Positions 3,513 through 64,000 are shown, counted from the first letter of the stretch. The stretch is 64,000 nt of DNA from Verrucomicrobiia bacterium (GCA_035545995.1 DASZXH010000053.1:188521-252520), one strand, 5' to 3'. Made by a program: numbers and translations. The notes: generated by a model not told the origin, from the sequence alone.

Positions 3513-3631
3513 TTTTACCTGTTTTCGTTATTGCCGTTGTTCTCCGATTCATCGGCAAGCGGCGCCGTCGTAATTCTGCTGATGACAGTCAGATTAAACC
3601 GAATTGGTTTCCGGTTGAAACTTTGAACTCT

Positions 3632-4528
3632 ATGAATACATACAAGCAATCCTGGCTCGTGATCGCCTGGCTTTTTGCAGCCGGCAATTCGATGAACATA
3701 AATGGCGATACTCTCTCACCACTGAAAGTTGGGACGCCCCCAAAAGTTGTCGGCGGTTATTATCCCCAATGGTCTCGCAACCCTGTATCGCTTCGAAAAA
3801 TTCCGCTGAACTACAATGTGGTATATCTGTTTGCAGCGCTACCCGTGGGTGGTGCGCCAGGCACCACCGGCGCAGTCACTTGGCCCGGAATCAGCAACTA
3901 TCCCGGCGTGTTAAAAGACGATGTCCAATACGTCCGAACAAAACAAGGCCGAAAGATAATTCTCACCATTGGCGGCTCCCACTCGGGCATGAGTTTCACA
4001 CCGGAGAAATCAAAGGCATTTATTGAGAGTATTCAGGCTATCTACACCGAATTGGGTGGAATTGACGGCATAGACTGGGATACATTTGAGGGCGATCAAG
4101 CGCCTGACACCGTAGAAATGATCAAGATCAGCCTGGCTTTAAAAGCGCTTCACCCCGGTTTTTTGATCACCACGCCGCCAGCACCTTGGAGCATGAGAGA
4201 CCGCGCTTTCTGTGCTGCCATGGTGCAAGCTGGCGTGCTCGATTATGCCGCGCCGCAATATTATGACATGGACGAAAAAATTGAACCCAGCTACATAGTA
4301 AAGAGCGTTGGCGAATGGGTCAAGTTGTTGGGTGCAGAACATGTCGTGGTAGGCTTTGGGATTAATGGCGAAAATCCTCTCTATTCGACCAAAGAAGGCG
4401 CGGTTGAGGCATGGAAGCAGATCAAAAAAAATTACCCCAACATTCGCGGTGCTTTCGATTGGAACATCGCAACGGATTGTAAAGAGGGTTGGCCATTTGC
4501 CAATGGATTGGCACCTTTGATCAAGTAA
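3632..4528 (+). CDS. GH18-like glycosyl hydrolase (chitinase / endo-beta-N-acetylglucosaminidase-like)
   Basis: GGYYPQWS, YNVVYLFAA, and GGIDGIDWDTFEG, an imperfect DxxDxDxE. Start moved to ATG 3632 (MNTYKQSWLVIAWLFAAG signal peptide), because the track start at 3491 is a TTG inside the upstream box. Confidence 0.55.
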   Translation: MNTYKQSWLVIAWLFAAGNSMNINGDTLSPLKVGTPPKVVGGYYPQWSRNPVSLRKIPLNYNVVYLFAALPVGGAPGTTGAVTWPGISNYPGVLKDDVQYVRTKQGRKIILTIGGSHSGMSFTPEKSKAFIESIQAIYTELGGIDGIDWDTFEGDQAPDTVEMIKISLALKALHPGFLITTPPAPWSMRDRAFCAAMVQAGVLDYAAPQYYDMDEKIEPSYIVKSVGEWVKLLGAEHVVVGFGINGENPLYSTKEGAVEAWKQIKKNYPNIRGAFDWNIATDCKEGWPFANGLAPLIK

Positions 4529-4581: not shown

Positions 4582-7239
4582 ATGAAACAACATAGAAAAA
4601 TCATCGGCTCTTTTTTAACCTGCATTTTTTTGGCCGTTTTCCAAATCTGTCCTTTGTTCGGAGATCTGGCGCAAAGCAACGAAAATTTTGTTCAACTTCA
4701 AAACGGCTGGCGTGTGCAGTCGTCATCGCTGGTGACGGCAAGCGGCGCGGCAATTTCCGTTACAGGCTTCGACGCTTCCAACTGGCGAGTGGCAACCGTT
4801 CCAAGCACAGTTTTGGCCACGCTCGTGGACGACGGTATTTACACAAACATTTTCTTCGGCACAAATCTGGCGAGGATTTCAACGTCGCCGTTCACGAATT
4901 CGTGGTGGTTCCGCAAAACATTTGATTTGAGCCACGGACAGGCCGAAGAAAACACTGATCTGGTTTTTGACGGAATCAATTACCGGGCGAATGTCTGGTT
5001 GAATGGAAAACAAATCGCGGCGGCGGACAAAACCTTCGGCGCGTTCCGCACCTTCAAATTTGACGTCACAGGTAAATTTAAATCAGGGAAAAATGTTCTG
5101 GCCGTGGAAGTGTTTCCACCGCAACCCGGCGACTTCACGATGGGGTTTGTGGACTGGAATCCAACACCGCCCGACCATGAAATGGGCTTGTTCCGTCCGG
5201 TTAAGCTGCATTTCTACAAAACCGTCGCACTGGAAAACGTCTTTGTCGAAACTAAAATTGACCACCGTAATTGGCGGGACGCGCAGCTGACGATCCACGC
5301 CGACTTGAGCAACCATTCCCGCCGTCCAGTTAAAACGATGGTCAGAGGTGAAATCGGGAATGTTTCCTTTAGCGAGCAATTCGCGCTGCAAGCCGGAGAG
5401 ACACGCGCCATCACGTTCGTGCCCGAAAATCATCCGGAGTTGAATTTCAAAAACGCCAAACTGTGGTGGCCTTGGGAATTGGGCGAGCCGCATCTTTACG
5501 AGATGAAGCTGACGGCGGAAAGTGATAGAGGTGTTTTCGACACGGAGCGGGTCCATTTCGGCATTCGTGAAGTGGCCGACGACATCAACGCCGACGGTGA
5601 TCGCGAATACATGGTCAACGGCAAAAAAATTCTCATTCGCGGCGGCGGCTGGGCGGACGAATTGTTGTTACGTGAGAGTGAAAAGAATTTGCGCGCACAA
5701 ATCGCCTACACGAAGGCGATGAATTTGAACACAATCCGGCTGGAAGGTTTTTGGGGCGAAAGCCAGCGGCTTTATGATTTGGCGGATGAAAGCGGCCTCC
5801 TCGTCATGGTCGGCTTTAGCTGTCAGTGGGAATGGAAGGATTATCTTGAAAAGGATTTCGACGAAACTTTCGGCGGCTTCGTCTCCGAAGCCGAGATGAA
5901 TCTGGCGACGAATTATCTGCACGACCAGGTTTTGTGGCTGCGGAATCATCCAAGTATTTTCGTTTGGGTGCTCGGCAGTGACAAATTGCCGCGACCGGAA
6001 TTGGAAGCGCGTTACGATGCGCTGCTGAAACAAATTGACCCGACGCGGCCAACGCTTAAATCCTGCGCCAGCGTCACCAGCTCAATCAGCGGGCCGTCGG
6101 CGGTGAAAATGAACGGCCCGTATGATTACGTCACGCCGGACTACTGGTATCTCGACAAAACGAACGGCGGCGCGTTCGGCTTTAACACCGAGACCAGCCC
6201 CGGCCCGGAGCCGCCGCCGCTGGAAAGCTTGCGGCGCATGATTCCCGCAGGCCATCTCTGGCCGATTGACAGTGTCTGGAATTTTCACTGCGGGCGATAC
6301 GAATTCGGCCAGATGAGCCGTTATCTGAACGCGTTCACGAACCGCTATAATGCGCCCAAAAGCATCGCGGAATTCGCTTTCAAGAGTCAGGCGGCAAATT
6401 ATGAAGGCATCCGTGCCATGTTCGAGGCGTTCGCAGTGAATCTGTCACACACCACCGGTATCATCCAGTGGATGCTCAATCCGTCGTGGCCAAGGTTTTA
6501 TTGGCAGCTTTACGACTATTATCTCGTCCCCGGTGGCGCGTTTTTCGGCGCAAAGAAGGGCGCCACGCCATTCGCGGTCATTTACAATTACGGCGACAAG
6601 GGAATTTATCTGGTCAACCAAACCTGCAGGAATCCTGGCGACTGCCGGACGACCGTCACAGTGTATAACTTGAACTCAAAGAAAATTCTCGAACAAACCG
6701 TGACCAATGCCGTCCCTGTTTACGGTTCAGAAAAAATCTTCGATCTGTCAAAACTTGAGCCGGATACGCCGGTTTATTTTCTGGACCTTCACACCATCGC
6801 CGCCACCGGTTCGGAAGCCAGCGCGGATAATTTTTACTGGCTTTCAACCAAACCTGACGTGCTCGACGAGGATAAAAGCACATGGTTCGTGACACCGAAC
6901 AAATCATTCGCCGATTTCAGGGCGCTCAACCAAATGCCGGAAGCGAACGTGCGGGCCAGCGTTTCCTATGCGCCCGACACCAATGGAACAGCCGCCACAG
7001 TCACATTGGAAAACTCCAGCAATACGCTGGCTTTCTTCATCGAAATGCGGATTGTGGACAAGAAATCGCAACAATCATTGACGCCGGTTTTCTGGGATGA
7101 CAATTATGTTTCGCTTCCGCCGCACGCAGTCAAAACCTTTCACGCGCTTATTCCCGCCAGCGGACAGCTAGAACTGAAATTAAATGGCTGGAACGTCAAA
7201 TTTGAATCTGTTGTCATGGGCAGCGTTCCTAAATTATGA
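4582..7239 (+). CDS. GH2 family glycoside hydrolase, exo-beta-D-glucosaminidase / beta-mannosidase-like
   Basis: Signal MKQHRKIIGSFLTCIFLAVFQ. GH2 N-terminal sugar-binding block (WRVATVPSTVLATLVDDGIY..WWFRKTF..LVFDGINYRANVWLNGKQI). The Ig and TIM regions (FGIREV..NGKKILIRGGGW) resemble CsxA-type enzymes. Confidence 0.7.
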   Translation: MKQHRKIIGSFLTCIFLAVFQICPLFGDLAQSNENFVQLQNGWRVQSSSLVTASGAAISVTGFDASNWRVATVPSTVLATLVDDGIYTNIFFGTNLARISTSPFTNSWWFRKTFDLSHGQAEENTDLVFDGINYRANVWLNGKQIAAADKTFGAFRTFKFDVTGKFKSGKNVLAVEVFPPQPGDFTMGFVDWNPTPPDHEMGLFRPVKLHFYKTVALENVFVETKIDHRNWRDAQLTIHADLSNHSRRPVKTMVRGEIGNVSFSEQFALQAGETRAITFVPENHPELNFKNAKLWWPWELGEPHLYEMKLTAESDRGVFDTERVHFGIREVADDINADGDREYMVNGKKILIRGGGWADELLLRESEKNLRAQIAYTKAMNLNTIRLEGFWGESQRLYDLADESGLLVMVGFSCQWEWKDYLEKDFDETFGGFVSEAEMNLATNYLHDQVLWLRNHPSIFVWVLGSDKLPRPELEARYDALLKQIDPTRPTLKSCASVTSSISGPSAVKMNGPYDYVTPDYWYLDKTNGGAFGFNTETSPGPEPPPLESLRRMIPAGHLWPIDSVWNFHCGRYEFGQMSRYLNAFTNRYNAPKSIAEFAFKSQAANYEGIRAMFEAFAVNLSHTTGIIQWMLNPSWPRFYWQLYDYYLVPGGAFFGAKKGATPFAVIYNYGDKGIYLVNQTCRNPGDCRTTVTVYNLNSKKILEQTVTNAVPVYGSEKIFDLSKLEPDTPVYFLDLHTIAATGSEASADNFYWLSTKPDVLDEDKSTWFVTPNKSFADFRALNQMPEANVRASVSYAPDTNGTAATVTLENSSNTLAFFIEMRIVDKKSQQSLTPVFWDDNYVSLPPHAVKTFHALIPASGQLELKLNGWNVKFESVVMGSVPKL

Positions 7240-7656
7240 TGACGGTTAATTCTGTGCCAAATTTATTGCGGTCGACGTCGGCAAACTAAAATTAAACTCG
7301 ACACGCCAATCAAAGCACGCGTGGTGCCTATGAAAAATAAATGCCGGTTAGCAGAAGCTTCACACGATGCCTAGACGTTATCCTCTTTTCAAGATATTTG
7401 CTGTCTTGAGAGGTTATGTGCTCCACCTTTTTAACACGCAACTCTATACTGGTCAGTTGCGCTTGGAGCTTTTTCTTCTCAGACTTGAGAACAGCATTCT
7501 CAGAGCACAGTTTTTCTTCTCAGATTCCGGATTTAGTTGGTCGAGTTTATACACGGAATAAAGTGACACAGAATGCACCAGTTTCAAGAAAGGCGAAAGT
7601 TGGAGTGATAAAGGTTGTTAGTCTCGATTCTCAAAACCATCTAAAACGACAGCAAG

Positions 7657-8685
7657 TTATTTTTCTAAATAACGGATCACTGCTTCCGTTCGCGTGCCGA
7701 CTTTGAGCTGTTCAAAAATTTTCTTTATATGCCCATGCACCGTCCAAACACTAATGCCCATGGCTTGTGCAATTTCCTTGTCTACGCAACCTTTGCTCAA
7801 CAGCGCCAACACTTCGCCTTCGCGGCGGGTGAGCTTGGCCAACGCCGAGTTGTCATGGTTGGAACGCAACTGCAGGAGTTCCTGAAAATAATATTTGACC
7901 CGCATTAAGAGGTCGTCTGTCATCAGTTCCGAACGACTGGCGACATTTAAAATCGGCTCCAGCAAACGGTCTGGCTTGACCCGCTTAACCAAATATCCTC
8001 CAGCTCCGCCGGGTGTTGAAACGAACATCTGATCAGCATCTACATGGATCGAATAAGTGAGAGTCGGCACTCCAGGCTGGATTGGCGCGATATTGCCGGC
8101 AGGTTTGAAGCCGATGCGACCGGCTAAATTTCGATTTAAAAGCACCATGCGAGGCTTGTGATAAGCCAATGCGTCGTTAAAAGATTCAATTGATTCGCAG
8201 GCAATGCTTCCGAATCCGGGTTGTTGGTCAATGCTCCAACACAAAGCACGGCGGACGCCTGCGTCCTGTTCCACTATCAGCACACGTTGCCGATTGGGGT
8301 TCGTCGGAGAAAATTCATTGGCTGGTCCTGACTGTTTTCCTACCAGCGTATGAATGGTGGTATAAGTCCACAATACTGGATTCATGCACCACTCGAAGCT
8401 CACGATCAGTTCACGCGGAAAATTTTGAAAAGCACTGCTCCAGCCCTGCTTTACAACCATCTGATAAATCTGTGACGCCTTAACTGCTGCCGTTTCCGCA
8501 TCCGGCGTGCCGAGCGGGAAAAAATAACCTATGCCGCTATATTCAATGCGCGTGGCCAAATCCTGTTCGGTCGCATTCGAGGCGGGGAAGTGGTAACGAC
8601 GCAGAATCAAACGGTCTTTCCAATTATTTATATCAGCGGCTGGCTGAACTTTTTTGGAATTTTTGGTAGATCCTTGCTTCAACAT
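7657..8685 (-). CDS. Atypical LuxR/GerE-family regulator: unknown N-terminal domain + pseudo-receiver + HTH
   Basis: C-terminal LTRREGEVLALLSKGCVDKEIAQAMGISVWTVHGHIKKIFEQLKV. Receiver-like core RVLIVEQDAG..PRMVLLNRNL..GGYLVKR, with Asn where the phospho-acceptor Asp is expected. ATG 8685 is preferred over the TTG at 8721. Confidence 0.7.
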   Translation of the reverse strand: MLKQGSTKNSKKVQPAADINNWKDRLILRRYHFPASNATEQDLATRIEYSGIGYFFPLGTPDAETAAVKASQIYQMVVKQGWSSAFQNFPRELIVSFEWCMNPVLWTYTTIHTLVGKQSGPANEFSPTNPNRQRVLIVEQDAGVRRALCWSIDQQPGFGSIACESIESFNDALAYHKPRMVLLNRNLAGRIGFKPAGNIAPIQPGVPTLTYSIHVDADQMFVSTPGGAGGYLVKRVKPDRLLEPILNVASRSELMTDDLLMRVKYYFQELLQLRSNHDNSALAKLTRREGEVLALLSKGCVDKEIAQAMGISVWTVHGHIKKIFEQLKVGTRTEAVIRYLEK

Positions 8686-9933: not shown

Positions 9934-11289
9934 GTGTCTTCGCTCCGACAACATGGGCCTCGTGGTGCTCATCAATCAGTCTATCTTGATAATCACCGCC
10001 GCCATCTTTCTTTCAACGATGTGCAGACATGGTCATGCGACGATAATGTTTTTCATATTCGGCAGCAGCACGCTGATTTATTTCATCATGGCAATCTTTT
10101 CCAGGCTAAAGACCAGATTTAAGTGGCGCGGTTTTATGCTCGACGTTAGCCGTCACTTTTTCACGAAGCAGGAAGTCGAAACCTTTCTCGACTTGATGGC
10201 GATGCAAAAATTGAATGTGTTCCACTGGCATCTCACGGATGATCATGGCTGGCGGATTGAAATCAAAAAATATCCTAAGCTTACCGAGATTGGTGCCTGG
10301 CGTTCGGATGTTGGTTTTGATTTTCCTTCCAATTCCACGACGGCTTATGGCCCGGATGGACGTTACGGCAGATTTTACACACAAGACGACATCCGCGAGG
10401 TAGTGAAATATGCAGCAGCACGGCACATCACCGTTGTGCCCGAAATCGAGATGCCCGGTCACGCAACTGTAGCGCTGGCGGCGTATCCACAATATAGTTG
10501 CACTGGTGGGCTGTTTGAGCCTTTGATGACCGCCGGTATTTTAATGGCATTTATGATCCGGCCAAAGAGGAAACTTTTCTCTTCCTAAGCAATGTGCTGG
10601 CAGAAGTATCATTGTTGTTTTCCGGAAAATACATTCACATCGGTGGCGACGAGGTGCCGAAAGAAACCTGGCAACATAGCGCGGATTGTCGGGCGCTTAT
10701 GAGGCGTGAAGGACTGAAAAATGAGCAGGAATTGCAGAGCTGGTTCATCCGGCGCATCGAAAAGATCGTCAATGCCAATGGCCATTCCATGATCGGCTGG
10801 AGTGAAATATTACAAGGTGGCTTGGCGTAAAACGCCGCCGTCATGGATTGGATCGGTGGAGCAAAGGAAGCGGCCAGCGCCGGTCATGACGTGGTGATGA
10901 CACTGACTGGATATTGCTATTTTGATTTTTACCAGTCGAGTAACCACGTTGCTGAACCAAAAGCTGCTGCCTGGGGCGGTCCACTGACACTGGGTAAAAT
11001 GTATGCCTTTGAACCCATGCCCACCAACGTGCCACCCGAATTGCAATCGTATATTCTCGGTGCGCAAGGCAATTTGTGGACCGAACAAATTCCCAACTTC
11101 AGGCATGTCGAATATATGACATTTCCGCGTGCTTGCGCGCTTGCTGAAGTCACCTGATCGGCCAAAGACGCACGCAACTAGGATGACTTCATGCGCTGGT
11201 TACAAATTCAAGCAAAACGATTTGATGCGTTAAACGTCAATTATCGGCACGCTGCGTTGGAAAATCCCGAGCCGGATCCTTCCAAGTGA
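9934..11289 (+). pseudogene. GH20 beta-N-acetylhexosaminidase, decayed (5' truncation, frameshifts, three in-frame stops)
   Basis: Catalytic-domain motifs are split over the ORFs 9953..10588 (WRGFMLDVSRHF, HWHLTDDHGWR, PEIEMPGH), 10594..10830 (IHIGGDE) and 10843..11157. There is a frameshift near 10530, a TAA at 10831, a TGA at 11155 and a TAG at 11179. The frame stays readable to 11289 (..DDFMRWLQIQAKRFDALNVNYR). Confidence 0.8.
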
Positions 11290-11751: not shown

Positions 11752-12065
11752 TTTCCCAGCGCAACGGCTTTAAATGCCCCGCACGTTGCCGCTCTCCTGA
11801 TAATGAAAATCTTCTAACGCAATTTAGCGACGCTGATACAGTCAGTTTTAAATGATTTCCAAATGAGCTTGCCGCGCACACGGATTCACGCATAATAGTT
11901 GCCTGATTGAACGTGGCGAACTACGTTTGCCACCGGCGTTTTCAACCAGCGCAAATCTGTATTATCGGATGAATTGGTCTTCATGCGAATAGTATAGAAA
12001 ATCGGTATAGAAACGCAAATCTTGAAATGCTAAAATTTGCATTTCGTGCAGTAAAATCAGTTGTT

Positions 12066-12143
12066 CGGAGCGTAGCTCAGCCTGGCTAGAGCACTTGCTT
12101 TGGGAGCAAGACGTCGCAGGTTCAAATCCTGTCGCTCCGACCA
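12066..12143 (+). tRNA. tRNA-Pro (anticodon UGG), CCA encoded
   Basis: Manual cloverleaf: acceptor CGGAGCG/CGCTCCG, D arm GCTC..GAGC, anticodon stem CTTGC/GCAAG with loop TTTGGGA (anticodon TGG), T arm GCAGG-TTCAAAT-CCTGT, discriminator A, CCA. Confidence 0.9.
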
Positions 12144-12156
12144 TTTTCCCTCTTTT
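12116..12156 (+). repeat. att-like core, copy 1 (tRNA-Pro T arm to 13 nt past CCA)
   Basis: gcaggttcaaatcctgtcgctccgaccattttccctctttt recurs at 54653..54693 with 40 of 41 nt identical, and in degenerate form at 63789..63830. Confidence 0.85.
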
Positions 12157-12764
12157 GACTCCTCCTGCCGCGAAGTGACAAACAGTGACTCTGACCGCAT
12201 GAACACAGGAGATTTTTCAAATTGCACCTGCGCGGGTGAAGTGACAGCCAATGCCCCGTTTTGACCCGTTGCGACCGAATTTTGTGAGTCTCTTTGTGCG
12301 TCATTTTTCGATGAAATTTGCGCGCGATGGAAATCCAATTTTTCAATCGCTTCTTTCAATGGCAGCATCTTCGCGTCTGTGTAAGTCTTGGCAGTTTGTT
12401 TCGGATCGCGATGTCGCATGAGCGCCATCCGCACGCACTCGCTCGGCGTTCCGGGCGCAAGTTGAGTGCAATATGTGACACGAAAGCTGTGGAAGTCCAA
12501 GCGTCCGTCGCCGCGGTCTTCCCAATCAATTCCAGCCGCCTTCAGGTCGGCATAAAATTGTATGTAGCCAGGGAACCATCCCTTTGGTCTGCGAACCTCG
12601 CCGGAGATGACCCAAAGCGCAAATGTAATTGAACGAAACGTGACCCGATTTCGATACCAAAAGGGTTGATCGCAGGATCTGTTTGGATAGCGACTAGCAC
12701 ATTGAACAGGCATTCTAAAATTGGAATCCGAAATTAAGCTACCCATACTACAGGCGTAGAGCAA
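12150..12764 (-). pseudogene. Tyrosine recombinase (phage-type integrase), C-terminal catalytic part only
   Basis: HSFRVTY (HxxR), MRHRD (His) and KTYTD (Tyr) are present. There is no N-terminal SAM-like domain and no clear first Arg. The ORF reads on through the antisense tRNA (GKWSERQDLNL). The 5' end abuts box A. Confidence 0.7.
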
Positions 12765-12810
12765 TCCTACCCTAATATCTTAATGACAAGTTTGAATAAG
12801 CTGACCATAT
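12748..12810 (+). promoter_or_regulatory. Conserved upstream box, copy A
   Basis: CTACaggcGTAGagcaatcctaCCCTAATatcttaATGACAAGTTTGAATaagcTGACCATat; ATG at 12836. Confidence 0.75.
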
Positions 12811-16620: not shown

Positions 16621-16690
16621 CTATGCCATAGGCGTAGAACAAACAAACCCCAATGCCGTTGTGACAAATTTGAGTGCTTTGGCCAGAATC
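16621..16690 (+). promoter_or_regulatory. Conserved upstream box, copy B
   Basis: CTATGCCataGGCGTAGaacaaacaaaCCCCAATGccgttgTGACAAATTTGAGTgcTTTGGCCAGaat; start codon at 16706. Confidence 0.8.
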
Positions 16691-25209: not shown

Positions 25210-25278
25210 CTATACCAAGGACATAGGCTAATCCAACCCCAATGCCGCGTTGACAAGTCTAACTTTCTAATCACTATT
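25210..25278 (+). promoter_or_regulatory. Conserved upstream box, copy C
   Basis: CTATaccaaggacATAGgctaatccaaCCCCAATGccgcgtTGACAAGTCTAACtttcTAATCACtat; ATG at 25290 (or 25305). Confidence 0.75.
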
Positions 25279-30171: not shown

Positions 30172-30240
30172 CCTATACCATAGGTCTATGACAAACCAAC
30201 CCCAATGTTTCAGTGACAAATTTGAATACTTTAGCCATAC
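30172..30240 (+). promoter_or_regulatory. Conserved upstream box, copy D (closest to consensus)
   Basis: CCTATaccATAGGtctatgacaaaccaaCCCCAATGtttcagTGACAAATTTGAATacTTTAGCCATac; ATG at 30313. Confidence 0.8.
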
Positions 30241-36096: not shown

Positions 36097-36166
36097 CCTA
36101 TCCCGCGGGAGTAGAACAATCCAGCCCCAATGTTTTAGTGACAAATTCATGTGTTTTAGCCATGCT
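36097..36166 (+). promoter_or_regulatory. Conserved upstream box, copy E
   Basis: CCTATcccgcgggaGTAGaacaatccagCCCCAATGttttagTGACAAATTCATGTgtTTTAGCCATgc; ATG at 36225. Confidence 0.8.
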
Positions 36167-43633: not shown

Positions 43634-43706
43634 CCTATGCTGAAGGCATAGTAAAATCCAACCTTAATGTTTTGATGACAAGTTTGAATATTTTACCTAG
43701 AGTTGA
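43634..43706 (+). promoter_or_regulatory. Conserved upstream box, copy G
   Basis: CCTATGCtgaagGCATAGtaaaatccaaCCTTAATGttttgaTGACAAGTTTGAATatTTTACCTAGag; ATG at 43765. Confidence 0.8.
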
Positions 43707-45716: not shown

Positions 45717-45785
45717 CCTATGCCAGGGGTATAGAATAATTCAACCCTAAAATCTTAATGACTGCTTTGGGTAGCTTATCTAAAG
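45717..45785 (+). promoter_or_regulatory. Conserved upstream box, copy H
   Basis: CCTATGCCaggGGTATAGaataattcaaCCCTAAAatcttaATGACTGCTTTGGGTagCTTATCTAAag. The track start 45758 falls inside this box. Confidence 0.7.
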
Positions 45786-52500: not shown

Positions 52501-53760
52501 GCGGCGCGACTTATGGCTGGGCACATTTTGGATTATGCCTTGCACTCTCCATTGTCGCCACGGGTAAACAAAGTCGTGTATCTGGGTGGCGCAGCCGGCG
52601 CGGCTTGGTTGGATAAAATCGGAGTCGGTTACGAACGGTCGGACACTCTGGACACAAGCGCTGAGTTGACGTTGATTAGCTCGGACGCAACCATTGATGC
52701 AACGGCACTCAACACCTACTTAGAAAATGGCGGCAAAGTGTTTTTCCTGCCGCGCACCCAACCAGATGGACCGTTGAATACCACTTTGAAACCTGCGGCA
52801 GACGATTTCGCCGGTTCACTGTCAGTACCAGATTGGCCACAAACCGAAGGTTTAAGCGCGTCGGACCTTCGCTGGCGCACTCACTTGGATAATCCTCCTT
52901 GGATTTTGGGTGGTGGAGCGGAGATTGGCGCGGATGGCCTGATTGGCCGTAAAACCGTTGGAAAGGGCGTGGCCATTTTCTGTCAGGTGGACCCGGACCG
53001 CTTTGATGCGGACCAGAAAACCTATTTCCGCTACACCCGTTGGCGATCCACTCGCGCAGTAGCCCAACTTCTGGCTAACCTTGGCGCCAGTTTCCCAGTG
53101 GACAGCCGAATTTTTCATCCGCTCGACACTTGGTCACTTAACTTGAATGGAACATGGCAGATGAAAGTCACACTCAACGCCACGTCCATCGCCAGTAAGA
53201 ACTCAGGAAATTCCGATACGGGCATCAGCCCGGCCGCGCAAGCATTGGTCGGAAAAACTGCGCCATCGGACGGCTGGACTTCAGTAACATTGCCCCAAAT
53301 CTTCAAAAACGACAATCAAGAAGCAGTATTTCGCAAAGAAATCACCATTCCGGACGGCGAAGCAGGCAAGGACTTGACGCTTAAGCTCGGCGCACTCGAC
53401 GGCTCTGACAATACTTATTTCAATGGCGAAGAAATCGGGCACAAGGACATGAAGTCTGCAGAAGAACAGGAAACGTCGCGCAATTACACGGTGCCTGGGA
53501 ACTTGGTAAAAGTTGGCAAAAATGTCGTCGCCATCCAGCTCTTTAGCCTCTCTGGTTCGGAAGGCTTTTCAGGCAAACCGGGTTTTCCGATGGGACCCGA
53601 TGGTAATCGGTCGGGGCGTCAAAGCACAGGCCCGCGAGTTGGTTTGGAAATGTCTTTGAATCTCCAGCCCGAAGGCGTCCAGACTCTTGGATATTATTAC
53701 CCCGACTATCGCACTGATTTCCAAATGGGAGACAACCCCTATCGCTATTATCGGTGGTAG
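49510..53760 (+). CDS. Very large (~1400 aa) GH2-like multidomain glycoside hydrolase
   Basis: GH2 N-terminal sugar-binding block (DGIWRFIP..WAYIKVPGSW..HAWYERQVTIP..ISLRFERVSTDAIIYVNGKECG). Ig/TIM entry NLYTLRLTV..FGFREFWIEGRQFYLNGTVIHLR. A second galactose-binding-like domain lies near the C-terminus. I could not find a canonical NE acid/base motif. The ATG 49510 start is uncertain. Confidence 0.65.
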   Translation: MMHNQQESPSIHFNQLLNVKLRLILACLCFSGVVSQAWAQQTQPADTVLPTGMSLNWDGLKVETVNAKRSQASLDGIWRFIPATEGVSEPPQAGWAYIKVPGSWGSGGGGRRGGRSGQGAPSALIAQGSGPQWENYNGSRVEHAWYERQVTIPSDWQGRTISLRFERVSTDAIIYVNGKECGRVSWPWGSVDITSAVTPGQAANVRVLVAAIADAEQVGDFWQNAFMNVTYSAARLRTRGLIGSVYLESRPTEAHVNDVFVRTSTRKKDIALDVDLADVKQSGQVHFVADMLNEKGEVEKSFNADATVEAKSTQTVTVSWPWEHPRLWDVDQPNLYTLRLTVMGAGVDDQFNQEFGFREFWIEGRQFYLNGTVIHLRQPNFNNGPLGSVGDIFSEVGSQAVDTRGDTSDAGPELDRYDHKGYLAAVYILDANKYMRDPHGNLVWKQNQQRALDRTEVWMHHYRNHPSAVMWIAGFNFFNSAVDADPHYIGRDGWGQDDQSWWRNMAAGKEMFEELKKLDPTRVYYSHAGAYAGDVYSMNLYLDMLPLQEREDWLSHWAENGIMPITMTEFGTPMDCSFRRGREGFESNITSEPLLTEYAAIYFGTAAYADEESKYRQYLHDLFRGGMLYNSSENQLDVYTNDHRIQQLYRVNTWRSWRTADLPGGLRIWSHMSDALNEVNYPTLAWIAGSTNDYTAKDHHFNSGQKFQKQIVLINDMRQPENFTATWTATVGGQQVSQGELHGTLAVSEIRKMPIEITTPQVEAGDKANGEITLTATIGEVTHHDTFAFRVFGRERLDDGDIATIDPGGLTSKMLKSLGYSTQTWNGSAAALVVVGRNALQDNPAMAAKLEPYVRSGGRVLIFAQDPTWMTEAFGWRVCPKVSRYVFPVPNSPVTQEIDADDLLNWTGNSTLIPAYPEYTGDYLRGNEREQPYTGWHWGNQGGVSSAAIEKPHRSGWTPLLECEFDLAYAPLMELNYGEGRVIFCTLDLEDHVLLDPAARLMAGHILDYALHSPLSPRVNKVVYLGGAAGAAWLDKIGVGYERSDTLDTSAELTLISSDATIDATALNTYLENGGKVFFLPRTQPDGPLNTTLKPAADDFAGSLSVPDWPQTEGLSASDLRWRTHLDNPPWILGGGAEIGADGLIGRKTVGKGVAIFCQVDPDRFDADQKTYFRYTRWRSTRAVAQLLANLGASFPVDSRIFHPLDTWSLNLNGTWQMKVTLNATSIASKNSGNSDTGISPAAQALVGKTAPSDGWTSVTLPQIFKNDNQEAVFRKEITIPDGEAGKDLTLKLGALDGSDNTYFNGEEIGHKDMKSAEEQETSRNYTVPGNLVKVGKNVVAIQLFSLSGSEGFSGKPGFPMGPDGNRSGRQSTGPRVGLEMSLNLQPEGVQTLGYYYPDYRTDFQMGDNPYRYYRW

Positions 53761-54399
53761 GTGTAGTACATTTCCTTTATTTTCACGAAAGCACAAAATC
53801 GAAAATAAAGCGTTTGCCTATTATCGCACCTGAAAATTGGGTTTATCAGCAGGCTTCTGTTGGCGGTTCGGCGGACGCAACGCTGCCGTCCATGCCGCCA
53901 ACGGAAGCAACGCGATTGCGTTCTATATCATCCGTCCGCGACGAGCGTGCGTGGAGCCACAGCGTAACATATGTTGGTCGCGGCGGTATTTGTTGTCGGA
54001 AATTCATGCGTGTTTTTCCGACAAAATCAAAACCTAAAGCTGACTGTATTCACAGTGATGTTCAATTGAATTTGCGATTGGCAAATGGCTCGACGGCCAC
54101 GAATTTTCATCAGATGCCTCGTCGCTTGTTTTGCGGACATTGCGTGACCATCTTGCGGGACTCTGCATATCCAAAGGCGAGATTTCAGCGAGCCGCAGAG
54201 TCCTTGTTCTGACAAGGGGTAAGGCTTGATTCCAATAAAATGAAAACTCAATCTGACATGCACCTGCACTGCATCCGGCAAATTGTTGCATACGATTTTT
54301 CGCGCTGCATGAATATGAACGTGCAATTTGGTGATACAAATTCGTGACGTGGATTTGAAGCGCGTCTGTATCTTGGTAATCATCGTTGATTGTTACAGA

Positions 54400-54693
54400 T
54401 GAAATGTTGTCATGCTTATTGAGCGCGTTGAAAATGAATCAAACAATTCAGGATTTAAGTCATCATTTGCCTCCGTTCATTGAGAAGACTCTTTCACTGA
54501 CGTGGCGATGGCTAGAATGGCTGCTTTCAGCGAATCGGGAAGTTTTTTCCATGCGGGGACAACTTGAGACAAATCATGTCCTAACACGACCGGAATTTGT
54601 GAGTCTCTTTGTGTGTCACCGGTTGGATTTCTCAAAGAATCGGCAGCTTTTTGCAGGTTCAAATCCTGTCGCTCCGACCACTTTCCCTCTTTT
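54400..54693 (+). repeat. 294-nt module, copy 2: integrase-tail-like segment followed by the tRNA-Pro 3' core (54653..54693)
   Basis: Collinear with 63537..63830 along its whole length. The core gcaggttcaaatcctgtcgctccgacca is identical to tRNA positions 12116..12143. The minus-strand frame reads GKWSERQDLNLQKAADSLRNPTGDTQRDSQIPVVLGHDLSQVVPAWKKLPDSLKAAILAIATSVKESSQ-stop. Confidence 0.85.
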
Positions 54694-54700
54694 TGTGAGT

Positions 54701-55972
54701 TTATTCCGCTGGTTGGGACGGGTTTTCGGTGATGATGCGCGCGCCGCGTTTGAACAGGAAATAGGAATAAATCCATTGAATCATCACGGTGATTTTGTTG
54801 CGAAAGCCAATCAAGAAAATGAGGTGAACCAAAAGCCATGTCAGCCACGCGGGAAATCCGTGCAAATGAATTTTGCCGATTTGCGCGACGGCTTTGGAGC
54901 GGCCAATCGTCGCCATCGTGCCTTTGTCAAAATAGCTGAACGCGGCGCGGGGCGAATCGTTGCGGCTCAATTCGTCGTCAATGATTTTGGCGACGTGCCG
55001 CGCCATTTGCATCGCGGCGGGCGAAACGCCGGGAACGGGTTGGCCGTTTTTTTCCATGACAAGCGCGAGGTCGCCGATGGCGAAAACTTCGGGATGGCCG
55101 GGCACGCTCAAATCGGGATTCACTTTCACACGTCCGGCGCGGTCGAGTTCCACGCCGAGTTTTTGTGTCAATGGCGACGCGGAAACGCCCGCGGCCCAAA
55201 CGATGTTGCCGGCGCGGATGATTTCGCCGGTTTTCAATTCGACTTCGCCGGCGCGGATGTTTTGCACGGGCGATGAAACGCGGATTTGCGCGCCGAGATT
55301 TTGCAACTGTCTGGCGGCGCTTTGCGAAAGGTCTTCGGGCAGATTTGCGAGCACGCGCGGGCTGCCTTCGATTAAAATGATTTTAGCCTGACGCGGGTCA
55401 ATGTGGCGGAAATCTTTTTCCAAAACGTGTTTGGTCAGTTCGGCAAACGCGCCGGCGAGTTCGACGCCGGTCGGGCCGCCGCCGATGATGATGATGGTCA
55501 TCAGCCTTTCTTGTTCCTGCGGGTCGGTTATTTTTTCCGCCTGTTCAAAAGCGGCGAGCACCTGACTGCGGATGTGCAGGGCATCGCGCAGGGATTTCAA
55601 ACCGGGCGCAAATTGTTCCCATTCGGGGTGGCCGAAATAATTGGTTTGGCCGCCGAGCGCGAGGACGAGGTAATCATAATTCAAAGTCTGATCGCGCAAG
55701 ACGACTTGTTTTTCCGCGAGTTTCAAATCGGTCGCTTCGTCCATCAACACGGTGATGTTTTCGCGGTCGGATAAAATGGCGCGGACAGGTTGCGCGATTT
55801 CCGGCGCGGACAATCCGGCGCTGGCGACTTGATAAAGGAGCGGTTGAAAGAGGTGATGATTGGTGCGGTCAATGACGGTGACGCGCGCGTTTGGGTTTTG
55901 AAAACTTCGGCAAAACGTCAAACCGCCAAAGCCCGCGCCGAGAACAACGATGTGGGGAGTTTTATCCGCCAT
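54701..55972 (-). CDS. ndh: Type II NADH dehydrogenase (NDH-2)
   Basis: HIVVLGAGFGGL and IIIGGGPTGVELAG are the two dinucleotide-binding motifs, and the length of 423 aa fits. Starts 9 nt after the encapsulin stop. Confidence 0.85.
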   Translation of the reverse strand: MADKTPHIVVLGAGFGGLTFCRSFQNPNARVTVIDRTNHHLFQPLLYQVASAGLSAPEIAQPVRAILSDRENITVLMDEATDLKLAEKQVVLRDQTLNYDYLVLALGGQTNYFGHPEWEQFAPGLKSLRDALHIRSQVLAAFEQAEKITDPQEQERLMTIIIIGGGPTGVELAGAFAELTKHVLEKDFRHIDPRQAKIILIEGSPRVLANLPEDLSQSAARQLQNLGAQIRVSSPVQNIRAGEVELKTGEIIRAGNIVWAAGVSASPLTQKLGVELDRAGRVKVNPDLSVPGHPEVFAIGDLALVMEKNGQPVPGVSPAAMQMARHVAKIIDDELSRNDSPRAAFSYFDKGTMATIGRSKAVAQIGKIHLHGFPAWLTWLLVHLIFLIGFRNKITVMIQWIYSYFLFKRGARIITENPSQPAE

Positions 55973-55981
55973 CAGTTTCTT

Positions 55982-56812
55982 TTATTTTTTCTTGCCCTTG
56001 TCGTCCTGACGTTTTGACGGCGACAACGCTACGGATGCTTCGCTGGTCAAAACGCGGAAAACAAAAGTTTCCTGAAGATACAGCCGCACGACGGATTCGG
56101 TGTGGCCGAGATAGCCGATGGAGACATCCTGTCCGATGCTCAACTGGAAATCGCCGCCGCGCGTGGTCAGGACGAACGCGCCTTCAATCGCCGGTGCCCA
56201 GACGAGATCGCCGTCCACGATGCGTTTGACGTGTTCGAGGACGGGATAGCCTTGATCGCGGGTTTCGGCGAGCGCGGTGTATTCGTTGGCTCCAAGCACG
56301 ACGGAGTAGGGGCCGTTCACGCCGACGAGGCGCAGTTGACTCAAGGCGCGGGCGATGGCATCGGGATAATCGCGCACGTCCGCCGGCAGCGCGTCAATGG
56401 GATTGCTCGTGCCTTCGCGAATGCCTTGAATGCCGGCTTCGCGGTAGCCATTGAAAATGGCGCGGTCTTCGGCGAAGGCGAGTTTCTTCGCGGCATCTTT
56501 TGCGGGCTGCCAATTTGAATCGTTTGATCCGCGCTCCACGTCGTCAATGGTCTGGCGGGACAGTTCAAACGGCACGCGCAATTCGACGAGCGGCTTGACC
56601 TCGCGCTGATGAGCGACGATGCCGGCGGCGGGAGCGGCAATGGATTTCAAATGTCCGGTCGCAACTCCCGGCTGGGCGATGCCGCCGGATGCCGGAACGT
56701 CCACCACGCGCCGTCCGGCCAGATACCGTTTCAGCGTTCGCGTCGTTTCGTCCTCGATTTGCGACCAGGCTGCGTCCGAGATGGGCGCGAGTTTTCGATG
56801 AAGGTTATTCAT
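55982..56812 (-). CDS. Family 1 encapsulin shell protein (linocin M18-like)
   Basis: MNNLHRKLAPISDAAWSQIEDE..LKRYLAGRRVVDV..VELRVPFEL..GYPVLEH are encapsulin hallmarks. It overlaps by 8 nt an upstream DyP gene that carries a targeting peptide. It has an unusual Lys-rich C-terminal tail, SPSKRQDDKGKKK. Confidence 0.9.
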   Translation of the reverse strand: MNNLHRKLAPISDAAWSQIEDETTRTLKRYLAGRRVVDVPASGGIAQPGVATGHLKSIAAPAAGIVAHQREVKPLVELRVPFELSRQTIDDVERGSNDSNWQPAKDAAKKLAFAEDRAIFNGYREAGIQGIREGTSNPIDALPADVRDYPDAIARALSQLRLVGVNGPYSVVLGANEYTALAETRDQGYPVLEHVKRIVDGDLVWAPAIEGAFVLTTRGGDFQLSIGQDVSIGYLGHTESVVRLYLQETFVFRVLTSEASVALSPSKRQDDKGKKK

Positions 56813-57872
56813 GTTTTTTTCCTTTCAGTGATCCGATGTTCAGTGACGCCTCGCGCGCGGGCGAAGGCGATGGTTGATTTGATTCGGTCGTCGGATTGTC
56901 CGCCGCCGGAGACGGTGCTTCGTCCCCAAGATTATCCAGAAAAGTCGCGGACGGCGCAAAAAATAAACTGCCGGTGACCGGATGGCTGAAATCCAAAAGC
57001 CGGTCGTAGTTGCCCGGCGGTCGTCCGATGAACATATTTTCGAGCATTTGTTCCGTGATGCGCGGCGTCCGGCAGTAGCCGATGAAGTAAGTGCCAAATT
57101 CGGCGTGACCGGGTTTGCCGAAGGGCATGTTGTCGCGCAGAATTTTCACTTCTTTGCCGTTCTCGGTGATGGTCGTCAACTCGTTGTGGGCGTAGGGCGC
57201 TTTCTCCGCGTCGCTGATCTCGATGTCGGAAAGTTTTTTGCGTCCGATGATGCGTTCCTGCATTTCCGTGGGCAACGCGTTCCATCGGCTCATATCGTGC
57301 AGGTATTTTTGAGTGATGACGTAACTGCCGCCGGCGAATTGCGGATCATCTTCACCAACGAGCGCGGCGTCGTAAGCGGCCTGCGCGCGCGGATTTTCCG
57401 TGCCGTCAACGAAGCCAAGCAAGTCGCGTTCTTCAAAATAGCGGAAGCCGTGAGTCTCATCCGCCACCGAAACCGCTCCGCCGATGCGCTCCATGATTTG
57501 AGTCGCCAATTCAAAACACAAATCCATTTTCTTGGCGCGGATATGAAACAAGACATCGCCGGGCGTGGCAACGGCATGGCGTTCGCCCGCGCGGAATTCG
57601 CGAAACGGATGCAGTTCGGCGGGACGCGGTTTTCCGAAAAGCCTATCCCACGCCTCCGAGCCAAAAGCCGCGACACAGGAAAGGCCGCCTTCCATGCGCC
57701 GGAAATCCACCGCGCGAAAAATTCCCGATAAATCCGCGCACAGCGAACGCACGGTCGCGCAGCTTTCGTTATCCGGTTTGATGCAGACCACCAGAAAAAT
57801 CGCGGCGCTGGTCAGCGGCGCGAGAATGGGTTGGGCGATGGGTGTTGAATCTTCTCCGCTGGCTGTGCTCAT
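56805..57872 (-). CDS. DyP-type peroxidase with C-terminal encapsulin cargo-loading peptide
   Basis: DyP motifs FVDGTENP and GSYVITQKYLHD. A Pro/Ser-rich linker is followed by SLNIGSLKGKKHE, matching the SLxIGSLKG targeting-peptide consensus. Confidence 0.9.
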   Translation of the reverse strand: MSTASGEDSTPIAQPILAPLTSAAIFLVVCIKPDNESCATVRSLCADLSGIFRAVDFRRMEGGLSCVAAFGSEAWDRLFGKPRPAELHPFREFRAGERHAVATPGDVLFHIRAKKMDLCFELATQIMERIGGAVSVADETHGFRYFEERDLLGFVDGTENPRAQAAYDAALVGEDDPQFAGGSYVITQKYLHDMSRWNALPTEMQERIIGRKKLSDIEISDAEKAPYAHNELTTITENGKEVKILRDNMPFGKPGHAEFGTYFIGYCRTPRITEQMLENMFIGRPPGNYDRLLDFSHPVTGSLFFAPSATFLDNLGDEAPSPAADNPTTESNQPSPSPAREASLNIGSLKGKKHE

Positions 57873-63428: not shown

Positions 63429-63536
63429 TCGGAATATTTATTTTGGCAACGTGGACGAGGTCAATGGCGATCATTGCCATAACAATTGAATAACAATAGA
63501 TTTGAAAATTAAATAGTTAAATCTCGAAAACAATTG

Positions 63537-63830
63537 TGAAATGTTGTCATGCCTCTTGAACGTGTTGAAATGGATGAAACAATTCAGGATTTAGGTTCGT
63601 CGTTTGCCTGCGTTAATTGAGAAGAGTCTTTCGCTGATTTGGCAATGGCAAGGATGGTTGCTTTCAGTAAATTGGAAGTTTTTCCATGCGGCGACAACTT
63701 GGGACAAATCATGTCCTAACACGACCGGAGTTTGTGAGTCTCTTTGTGTGTTACTGTTTGGATTTCCTAAAGAATCGGCAGTTTTTTTACAGGTTTCAAA
63801 TCTTGGCGCTCCGACCATTTCTCTTTTTTT
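63537..63830 (+). repeat. 294-nt module, copy 3, with a degenerate tRNA-Pro 3' core (63789..63830)
   Basis: Collinear with 54400..54693. The core is acaggtttcaaatcttggcgctccgaccatttctcttttttt. The minus-strand frame is still open through the core (..TADSLGNPNSNTQRDSQTPVVLGHDLSQVVAAWKN..) and then frameshifts relative to copy 2. Confidence 0.8.
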
Positions 63831-64000
63831 GACTTCACACTTTTTGGGTACAATGTCGAGCTGGTCAATTGAAGTCAAAAAACATTTGACAACGAGGAAT
63901 CATTGTGGATAATAACGACATATTAAGTCGTTATTTTAATTCGCGACATAATTTTGAAGAACATTAATTTTAAAATTATTGGTGATTATTAAGACAGCAG

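Follow-up and report, generated by a model that had tools for sequence, protein, structure and literature searches.

The integrases of SSV and of Myxococcus phage Mx8 both extend across attP, as noted in the Islander paper (PMC4383910). In SSV-type integration, Int(N) is parted from the catalytic Int(C), leaving two inactive fragments; this family (SSV1/2, pTN3, and pT26-2) carries PF16795 (Phage_integr_3) and has been described as exclusively archaeal, and a 2021 review states that self-disrupting integrases occur in archaea only (PMC8371274). The Mx8 attP is part of the coding region of int; upon integration, the gene acquires a different 3' end, but the enzyme is not inactivated (PMC6070905, PMC4383910). 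A further bacterial case is that of the RAP44-like phages of Riemerella anatipestifer, whose integrase gene contains a 19-bp attP and is divided at the 3' end of tRNA-Ser (PMC12169736). Such placement of attP within int is seldom seen in bacteria, Mx8 being the best-known example; an earlier note on the DNA studied here had remarked that this is not the usual bacterial layout. Mx8 has so far been treated as an isolated bacterial oddity. Broussard et al. are said to have described, in 2013, mycobacteriophages (Brujita and Charlie) in which attP lies in a coding gene and integration alters the C terminus of the product and thereby switches the state of the element.

Here, we analyzed a stretch of 64,000 nucleotides, referred to as the window, from a Verrucomicrobiia bacterium (GCA_035545995.1 DASZXH010000053.1:188521-252520). 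An Rfam scan of the window detected its tRNA-Pro gene and nothing else. The 25-nt 3' end of this gene, GGTTCAAATCCTGTCGCTCCGACCA, is present exactly at 12119-12143 and 54656-54680, and a third copy with 3 mismatches was found at 63793-63817, with 0 matches expected from shuffles of the window; with its flanks, the core repeat measures 41 nt (repeat family D14). Genomic islands are usually taken to be bounded by a tRNA gene and a direct repeat, farther on, of that gene's 3' end (PMC4383910), and by Islander-type criteria the window holds an intact tRNA-Pro, two displaced 3' fragments, and an adjoining int remnant, a pseudogene. We put at roughly 80% the probability that the modules at the three cores are att junctions of Verrucomicrobiota elements whose attP lies inside a tyrosine integrase gene. 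The architecture, the frame continuity, the selection on the tail, the repeat geometry and co-variation, and the stop/start overlap that carry this reading are documented below; the features of the window are collected in Table 1.

Table 1. Attachment-site and integrase features of the window, by position
Feature	Position	Strand	Basis or detail
tRNA-Pro(TGG), target of integration, with the att core at the 3' end	12066..12143	+	ARAGORN; Rfam RF00005, 64.8 bits
Core copy 1 (attL side), made up of the 28 terminal tRNA nt and 13 nt more	12116..12156	.	D14 repeat; 0 expected in shuffles
Integrase remnant, part of ORF 12057-12764	12144..12595	-	match restricted to PF00589 positions 111-169, E 0.007
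P-side double 11-nt motif TGACGCACAAAGAGACTCACAA, encodes DAQRDSQ	12282..12303	-	138 nt from core
Element-interior remnant adjoining tail 2	53846..54476	-	blastn, 66-77% to the region downstream of related tails
Intact integrase tail QKAADSLRNPTGDTQRDSQIPVVLGHDLSQVVPAWKKLPDSLKAAILAIATSVKESSQ, TGA stop included (CAATGA overlap)	54477..54652	-	ORF list; tail-profile matches; in-frame fusion
P'-side double motif TGACACACAAAGAGACTCACAA, encodes DTQRDSQ	54597..54618	-	34 nt from core
Core copy 2, attR side	54653..54693	.	98% identity
Module 3, second decayed tail	63535..63789	-	87% identical to module 2; ORF 63591-63878
P'-type double motif of module 3, 1 mismatch	63732..63752	-	
Core copy 3, degenerate	63790..63830	.	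76% identity

The earlier note had stated that the minus-strand integrase frame beside the tRNA is open through the antisense core as GKWSERQDLNL, and this is what the ORF at 12057-12764 contains: ..EKLDFHRAQISSKNDAQRDSQNSVATGQNGA, 34 codons, GKWSERQDLNL, and then a continuation through the antisense tRNA, inside which this integrated-state ORF ends as ..GKWSERQDLNLRRLAPKASALARLSYAPNN-stop. Of the catalytic domain, the integrase part retains ~80 C-terminal residues (HSFR..MRH..KTYTD), which are followed by a linker of ~75 codons into the core; the box I Arg region is gone. When a 243-aa integrase body was used as the tblastn query, only residues ~165-243 were matched, with 90% identity, and the remnant shows 81% nucleotide identity to the int 3' ends of two related loci (L006 and L021). 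The N-terminal three quarters of the gene (~75% of the body) are absent, and upstream of ~12595 the remnant is replaced by a promoter-like repeat and a DUF1559-type gene. The window integrase is a truncated pseudogene, and because it has lost about three quarters of its body, nothing in the window can still excise on its own. Truncation of int near the same region recurs at several independent loci (L042, L089, L090-L092, and L094-L095, besides window 12144-12595); at those loci, the last ~80-130 body codons are fused in frame to linker, core, and tail, and in the window to the tRNA.

On the minus strand at 54.6 kb, ORF 54477-54848 reads ..KEGKWSERQDLNLQKAADSLRNPTGDTQRDSQIPVVLGHDLSQVVPAWKKLPDSLKAAILAIATSVKESSQ-stop and crosses the same core in the same frame as the remnant beside the tRNA, just as had been proposed from the first inspection of the sequence. 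The ORF that starts at the ATGA overlap of this tail has shrunk to MNGGK-stop, and ~630 nt to the left of the tail still resemble element interior. Modules 2 and 3 share 87% identity over ~300 nt. The third copy does keep its frame open through the degenerate core, as claimed, but its tail goes out of frame after ..AAWKN owing to a 2-nt deletion, and the stop is mutated. Equally, the assertion that the tail lies left of the core in modules 2 and 3 and right of the core beside the tRNA holds only in its first half: the LKAAILAI part of the tail is confined to the left side of cores 2 and 3, and to the right of the tRNA-side core there is only the 22-nt motif and no tail proper. The window copy is a fossil, with ~75% of int gone, the coupled gene of tail 2 gone, and tail 3 frameshifted. 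A separate observation concerns ORFs on the opposite strand from the tail, located 0.5-0.9 kb inside the element in a region that shows 66-77% nucleotide identity in many elements: 53754-54212 (+) in the window, 3593-3856 (-) in L003, 6599-7057 (-) in L004, and 10661-10951 (-) in L006. The products in the window and L003 have ..GHC(A/V)T(V/I)LRDS.. in common, and those in L004 and L006 have another common segment; the region may represent a small regulator gene or else a structured non-coding stretch.

The virtual fusion of body, core, and tail was used as the query against 5.8 billion proteins. Most homologues were integrated-state integrases, with ORFs that cross 60-85 variable codons from the catalytic Tyr into antisense tRNA. 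In every homologue retrieved, the frame was open over this entire stretch (~60-85 codons, catalytic Tyr to core inclusive), so that termination ahead of the core, named in the earlier note as grounds for giving up the split-gene idea, was not observed; the 62 codons after the catalytic domain were stop-free in 20 of 21 full-length bodies. A 337-aa protein, P0030, consists of the body, EWSERQDSNL, and ..DLAQVVTAWPKLPTPLKAAVLAII..; with ..AQRDSQTPVHSLHDLAQVVTAWPKLPTPLKAAVLAIINSSEGQP after body and core, it is precisely the fused form that had been predicted. Further contiguous in-frame body-core-tail ORFs were detected (P0015, P0269, P0278, P0204, P0186, P0212, and P0243, as well as at L003 and L089). 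Contiguous ORFs in which the core is followed by the tail thus exist, and the other stated ground for abandoning the idea, a tail that never forms part of an integrase ORF, falls away with P0030, P0015, P0269, and the others.

No such gene was found on a free circular or demonstrably unintegrated element, where the earlier note had thought of looking for it. P0030 was considered as an unintegrated form and rejected, since its contig (L001) is a tandem-array junction with a second core 3.3 kb upstream, which is followed by an in-frame tail, genes for a Rep-like protein, ParD, and ParE, and an integrase body. No free form was seen among the contigs of P0269, P0186, and P0243 either, which represent chromosomal relics or are not long enough for a judgment. 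In viral_contigs, the tail profile detected a single locus (L004), which adjoins tail-fibre genes of a phage and is not a free attP; a metagenome scan for the contiguous P-200nt-P' pattern gave one true match (L089, with a truncated int) and two low-complexity false positives, and the phage database yielded no close relative of the fused integrase.

A tail-profile scan of one genome per species produced 125 loci, 80 of which were fetched; nearly all of the latter are from Verrucomicrobiota metagenome-assembled genomes (Limisphaerales, Verrucomicrobiae, subdivision 3, and Chthoniobacterales). At 15 loci beyond the window, a tail is followed 3-10 kb downstream by an integrase body on the same strand, and the pair is flanked by an 18-31-nt direct repeat; where ARAGORN calls a gene, this repeat corresponds to the 3' terminus of a tRNA for Pro, Ser, Val, Asp, or Gly. 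The earlier note had held that recombining two cores, as in excision, would fuse integrase body, core, and tail into one continuous ORF. This was borne out in 16/16 pairs (the 15 loci and the window), each giving by virtual excision one stop-free body-linker-core-tail ORF that ends ..LKAAILAI..stop, although the loci are related and the 16 are not independent events. Frame continuity spans no fewer than 7 types of core, which are not all read in the same frame, and one case (L035/L048) is in the sense orientation. At junctions between unlike elements in tandem arrays (L011, L012, L022, L033, and L059), in contrast, body and tail are out of frame, and no other observation argues as strongly as this difference for selection on frame continuity in native pairs. 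In the two sense-oriented elements (L035 9899-10140, and L048), the integrase ORF crosses the 3' end of tRNA-Ser(GGA) as ..DLGFESPSLRH... In L035, where ARAGORN calls the gene, the intact tRNA lies directly upstream of the tail and not beside the integrase body, so that tRNA transcription could read into the tail and the coupled genes when the element is integrated.

A nucleotide segment is common to the three modules (12272-12308, 54587-54623, and 63722-63758; repeat family D16). The homology to the tail that had been reported at 12270-12300 is therefore real and extends to all three modules, but it represents a repeated motif, a double 11-nt direct repeat of 22 nt, flanking the core and not evidence for a displaced tail. 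The window has exactly three occurrences of the 21-nt double motif GACNCACAAANAGACNCACAA, all at the modules, with 0.01 occurrences expected. The P and P' motifs of the window match at 21 of 22 positions, and their start-to-start distance in the virtual attP is 222 nt. Among the 16 reconstructed attP sites, the P copy ends 128-150 nt before the core and the P' copy starts 23-59 nt after it; the start-to-start distance is 222 nt in 13/16, 234 nt in 2/16, and 213 nt in 1/16, all multiples of 3. Furthermore, P and P' co-vary within an element, with 20.1/22 matches for self pairs versus 16.9/22 for non-self pairs. Distinct classes of the repeat motif are seen (e.g., AGCCTCCCCAATAGCCTCCC and GAATACACAAATACGCGCACAG), and in L001 the two sides of the virtual attP carry one and the same 22-nt motif, AGCATCACAAGGAGCATCACAG (100% identity). 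Fixed geometry together with within-element co-variation is the behavior expected of arm-type integrase binding sites, and judged by their sequence and placement the double repeats probably constitute a pair of such sites, to which Int would presumably bind. The constancy of the 222-nt spacing could stem partly from DNA geometry rather than coding. Heterobivalent (lambda-like) integrases are characterized by an N-terminal domain that binds repeated arm-type sites flanking the core; in full-length Int, a region of ~85 aa without a Pfam match precedes the SAM-like domain at the N terminus.

We also examined how the tails end. Among 87 tails, 84 end in [A/G/T]TGA, compared to 47% of long ORFs in the same loci, a count that, like the one for virtual excision, comes from related loci and not from independent events. 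A TGA preceded by A, G, or T means that an ATG, GTG, or TTG overlaps the stop, and this stop/start overlap accounts for the conserved terminal Pro or Glu (CCATGA or GAATGA). The overlapping ORF is at least 40 aa long in 52/87 tails and shorter than 40 aa in 35/87; it encodes a conserved membrane protein of ~94 aa in ~30 loci and a protein of 280-430 aa in 10 loci. Three of the four 280-430-aa proteins scanned matched HUH rolling-circle initiators (PF23343, E 4e-8; phrog_3419). The cargo of the elements includes ParDE, MNT/HepT, and PemK toxin-antitoxin pairs, among others, and the elements look like small integrative, partly plasmid-like entities rather than tailed phages. At L001, positions 5335-8662 hold a complete 3.3-kb element between 26-nt cores, with the tail, Rep-like, ParD, and ParE genes and the integrase body; its Rep-like gene has a faint match to PF23343, and the element looks like a minimal member of the family.

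To characterize the tail itself, a profile was built from three tails; it matched 137 proteins, and among the 120 matches listed, all were 34-105 aa long. In the tail proteins examined, a tRNA-derived peptide is followed by D(T/S)Q(R/I)D(S/A)Q and then HDLSQVVTAWxKLPxPLKAAILAIV. The family comprises 1568 representative clusters at E<=1e-3, from a search of 1.84 billion cluster representatives, and its members always stand behind a tRNA-derived core. Pfam and NCBIfam gave nothing meaningful for the tail, and the tail profile found nothing at E<=10 among PDB sequences. Full-length Int has the SAM-like domain, PF00589 (E 3.9e-12), the tyrosine-recombinase catalytic domain with its R..HxxR..H/W..Y residues, and a 148-aa extension without a Pfam match.

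Could the tail have nothing to do with the integrase protein? One could suppose that the integrase ends soon after its catalytic domain and that the tail is an independent small gene in a compatible frame, the read-through being an artefact; antisense-tRNA ORFs are a common annotation artefact, nearly all tails in the databases are called as separate ORFs of 34-105 aa, and the linker between body and core has a dN/dS of ~0.83. We consider this highly improbable, given that native pairs are in frame and stop-free in 16/16 cases and heterologous junctions are not, that the spacing variants differ by multiples of 3, and that the tail has neither a conserved start codon nor a fixed N terminus. The linker, too, is open in 20/21 bodies despite a dS of ~0.8, and it looks like a spacer that needs only to stay open, with little constraint at the protein level. 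Even less credible is the view that the ~300-nt module has been kept as DNA only, as an attP arm with sites for Int, IHF, or Xis, and that the tail is untranslated. A 22-nt motif repeated at a fixed distance from the core, and the fact that attP arms are normally non-coding, would suit this view; the strong synonymous bias, seen in one frame only, does not. In 79 tails, dN/dS was 0.28 in the int frame versus 1.07 and 1.68 in the other frames (0.34 for the last 100 codons of the catalytic body), and constraint in the int frame only indicates a translated, constrained peptide. The same is argued by conservation of the tail peptide across the 1568 clusters and by a stop that is almost always a TGA overlapping a start codon.

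A different question, within the reading of the modules as att junctions with attP inside int, is whether the window preserves the two ends of a single element. These ends lie 42.5 kb apart, compared to 3-10 kb in the 15 other elements; the GC content is ~50% throughout the interval, with no compositional difference and ordinary-looking genes between the ends. No Rep or other element gene is present beyond 53846-54476, and neither the Rep nor the membrane proteins, used as tblastn queries, had a match in the window. On the right-hand side of core 2, an int remnant is lacking; an NDH-2 gene has its stop codon 8 nt beyond the core, and the interval is filled by a promoter-like regulon of 7 copies. 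All this would fit a history in which the int remnant (12.3 kb) and the tails (54.6 and 63.8 kb) go back to separate insertions or to a rearrangement, and 12144-54652 was never one mobile element. We regard that history as unlikely, though a serious contender, since the P and P' motifs of the two ends agree at 21/22 positions and fuse in frame, and a tRNA gene with a direct repeat of its 3' end is what delimits an island (PMC4383910). No synteny was found between the flanks of the window and the fetched loci, and the sole exact match to the NDH-2 protein came from a contig of 5 kb, in which the genes are ordered as in the window.

Several other features of the interval and its surroundings were noted. 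Just outside core 2, at 54701-57872 on the minus strand, genes for an encapsulin (Linocin_M18), a DyP-type peroxidase, and NDH-2 stand in a row (Pfam); encapsulin and DyP-type peroxidase form an ordinary encapsulin cargo pair. A conserved 65-nt element occurs in seven plus-strand copies (12743-12807, 16621-16685, 25210-25274, 30173-30237, 36098-36162, 43635-43699, and 45718-45782), all between cores 1 and 2, the first of them exactly where the integrase remnant is cut off. It contains the palindrome-like CTATnCC-N3-GGnnTAG, ACAATCCAACCCCAAT, and TGACAA-N17-CATAnT, resembling sigma-70 -35 and -10 boxes, and has no Rfam match. The copies lie near, and mostly upstream of, plus-strand gene starts, including those of prepilin/DUF1559-type and very large repeat proteins, and the element is probably the common promoter and operator of a regulon. 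Between 37500 and 45350, large plus-strand ORFs (1223, 941, and 599 aa) have in common several families of internal repeats of ~150-300 nt with ~546-nt spacing (D1-D6 and D10); such repeat-domain, surface-protein-like genes are typical of the phylum.

If the modules are att junctions of elements with attP inside int, the circular form, as reconstructed, would carry int as one ORF of ~480-500 codons, composed of the N-terminal region, a SAM-like core-binding domain, the PF00589 catalytic domain ending at the Tyr, and ~145 further codons, and the entire attP (P arm, core, and P' arm) would fall within these last ~145 codons. The predicted order is the 11-nt direct-repeat pair (P), a weakly constrained spacer of ~135 nt, a core of 25-31 nt with the sequence in which the target tRNA gene ends at its 3' side, a spacer of ~35 nt, the repeat pair again (P'), ~30 codons of the strongly conserved helix-like tail, and the TGA, which would overlap the start of a gene encoding either a small membrane protein or a rolling-circle Rep. 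Core recombination would put the element into the tRNA gene while the catalytic body of the integrase is kept whole. Because the integrase gene crosses its own attachment site, insertion into the tRNA cuts the conserved tail off, and the integrated Int would have its last ~57 residues swapped for 0-25 residues encoded by antisense tRNA. The tail and the coupled genes would be moved to the far end of the element, away from int, where the tail-coupled gene would lose its upstream translation and probably its promoter as well. Integration would accordingly leave Int with an altered C terminus and the Rep or membrane gene no longer driven, and excision would restore both. By analogy with IntP and IntX of Mx8, we infer an integration-dependent switch, in which full-length and truncated Int would be expected to differ in function.

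In 1568 tail clusters and at least 125 loci in Verrucomicrobiota data with one genome per species, we see a large bacterial family in which the whole attP is coding. More broadly, we tentatively suggest that it may be a widespread bacterial counterpart of the archaeal att-containing integrases, found in small elements with Rep and toxin-antitoxin genes, with a complete attP (the tRNA core and both pairs of arm sites) in frame, with integration switching both the C terminus of Int and its coupling to Rep or the membrane protein, and with excision bringing back full-length Int and an int-Rep operon, a view we deem possible rather than probable. If the switch is real, it would offer a factor-free route to recombination directionality and replication control, as well as a compact int and att cassette with several tRNA specificities. 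For annotation of these genomes, short hypothetical proteins beside tRNA fragments and integrases that read through tRNAs are to be seen as two halves of one gene, and island-finding software should join them as such.

The comparison with known systems places the family nearer to one of them than to the others. The earlier note had called the arrangement SSV-like. Like SSV-type integrases, the present ones have the recombination site inside the integrase ORF, so that the gene is partitioned, and they form a compact int and att module that targets tRNA genes; the location of the att core within the ORF, found in all 16 virtual fusions, upholds the comparison to that extent, as an analogy only. 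Unlike in the SSV type, the split falls after the catalytic domain, with the core ~75-85 codons past the catalytic Tyr, and integrated copies keep all domains (e.g., the 442-aa Int of L006, for which the reconstructed fusion has 494 aa); the domains are PF00589 and SAM-like, and the hosts are bacteria (Verrucomicrobiota metagenome-assembled genomes). With its catalytic domain left whole, the integrase resembles IntP of Mx8 in layout more than it does the SSV type. In the RAP44-like case, only a 43-bp terminal piece is split off, without a described conserved tail domain, and we found no evidence of kinship between those phages and this family. In the integration-dependent immunity of Brujita and Charlie, the split gene is that of the repressor, whereas here it is that of the integrase.

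With Mx8, the family shares an attP in the 3' coding region of int past the catalytic Tyr and a tRNA gene as the target. When translated, Mx8 int gives the Tyr, ~60 aa, the tRNA-like ARSTGLEP, and then a tail of 112 aa; integration into the tRNA gene swaps the C terminus in both, the integrated ORFs of the present family ending 0-25 codons past the core. Beyond the general fold, the two have no detectable sequence relationship (BLASTP E 0.19), their tails are unrelated, and the phage-database search with the fused integrase gave no Mx8 match. Mx8 is a 49-kb tailed phage of a myxobacterium, whereas the present elements are 3-10 kb long, reside in Verrucomicrobiota, and carry Rep and toxin-antitoxin genes; we did not find a conserved short tail, a stop/start overlap, or the 222-nt repeat geometry described for Mx8. 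The present family would thus work like Mx8 by analogy, and not as a member of the same sequence family.
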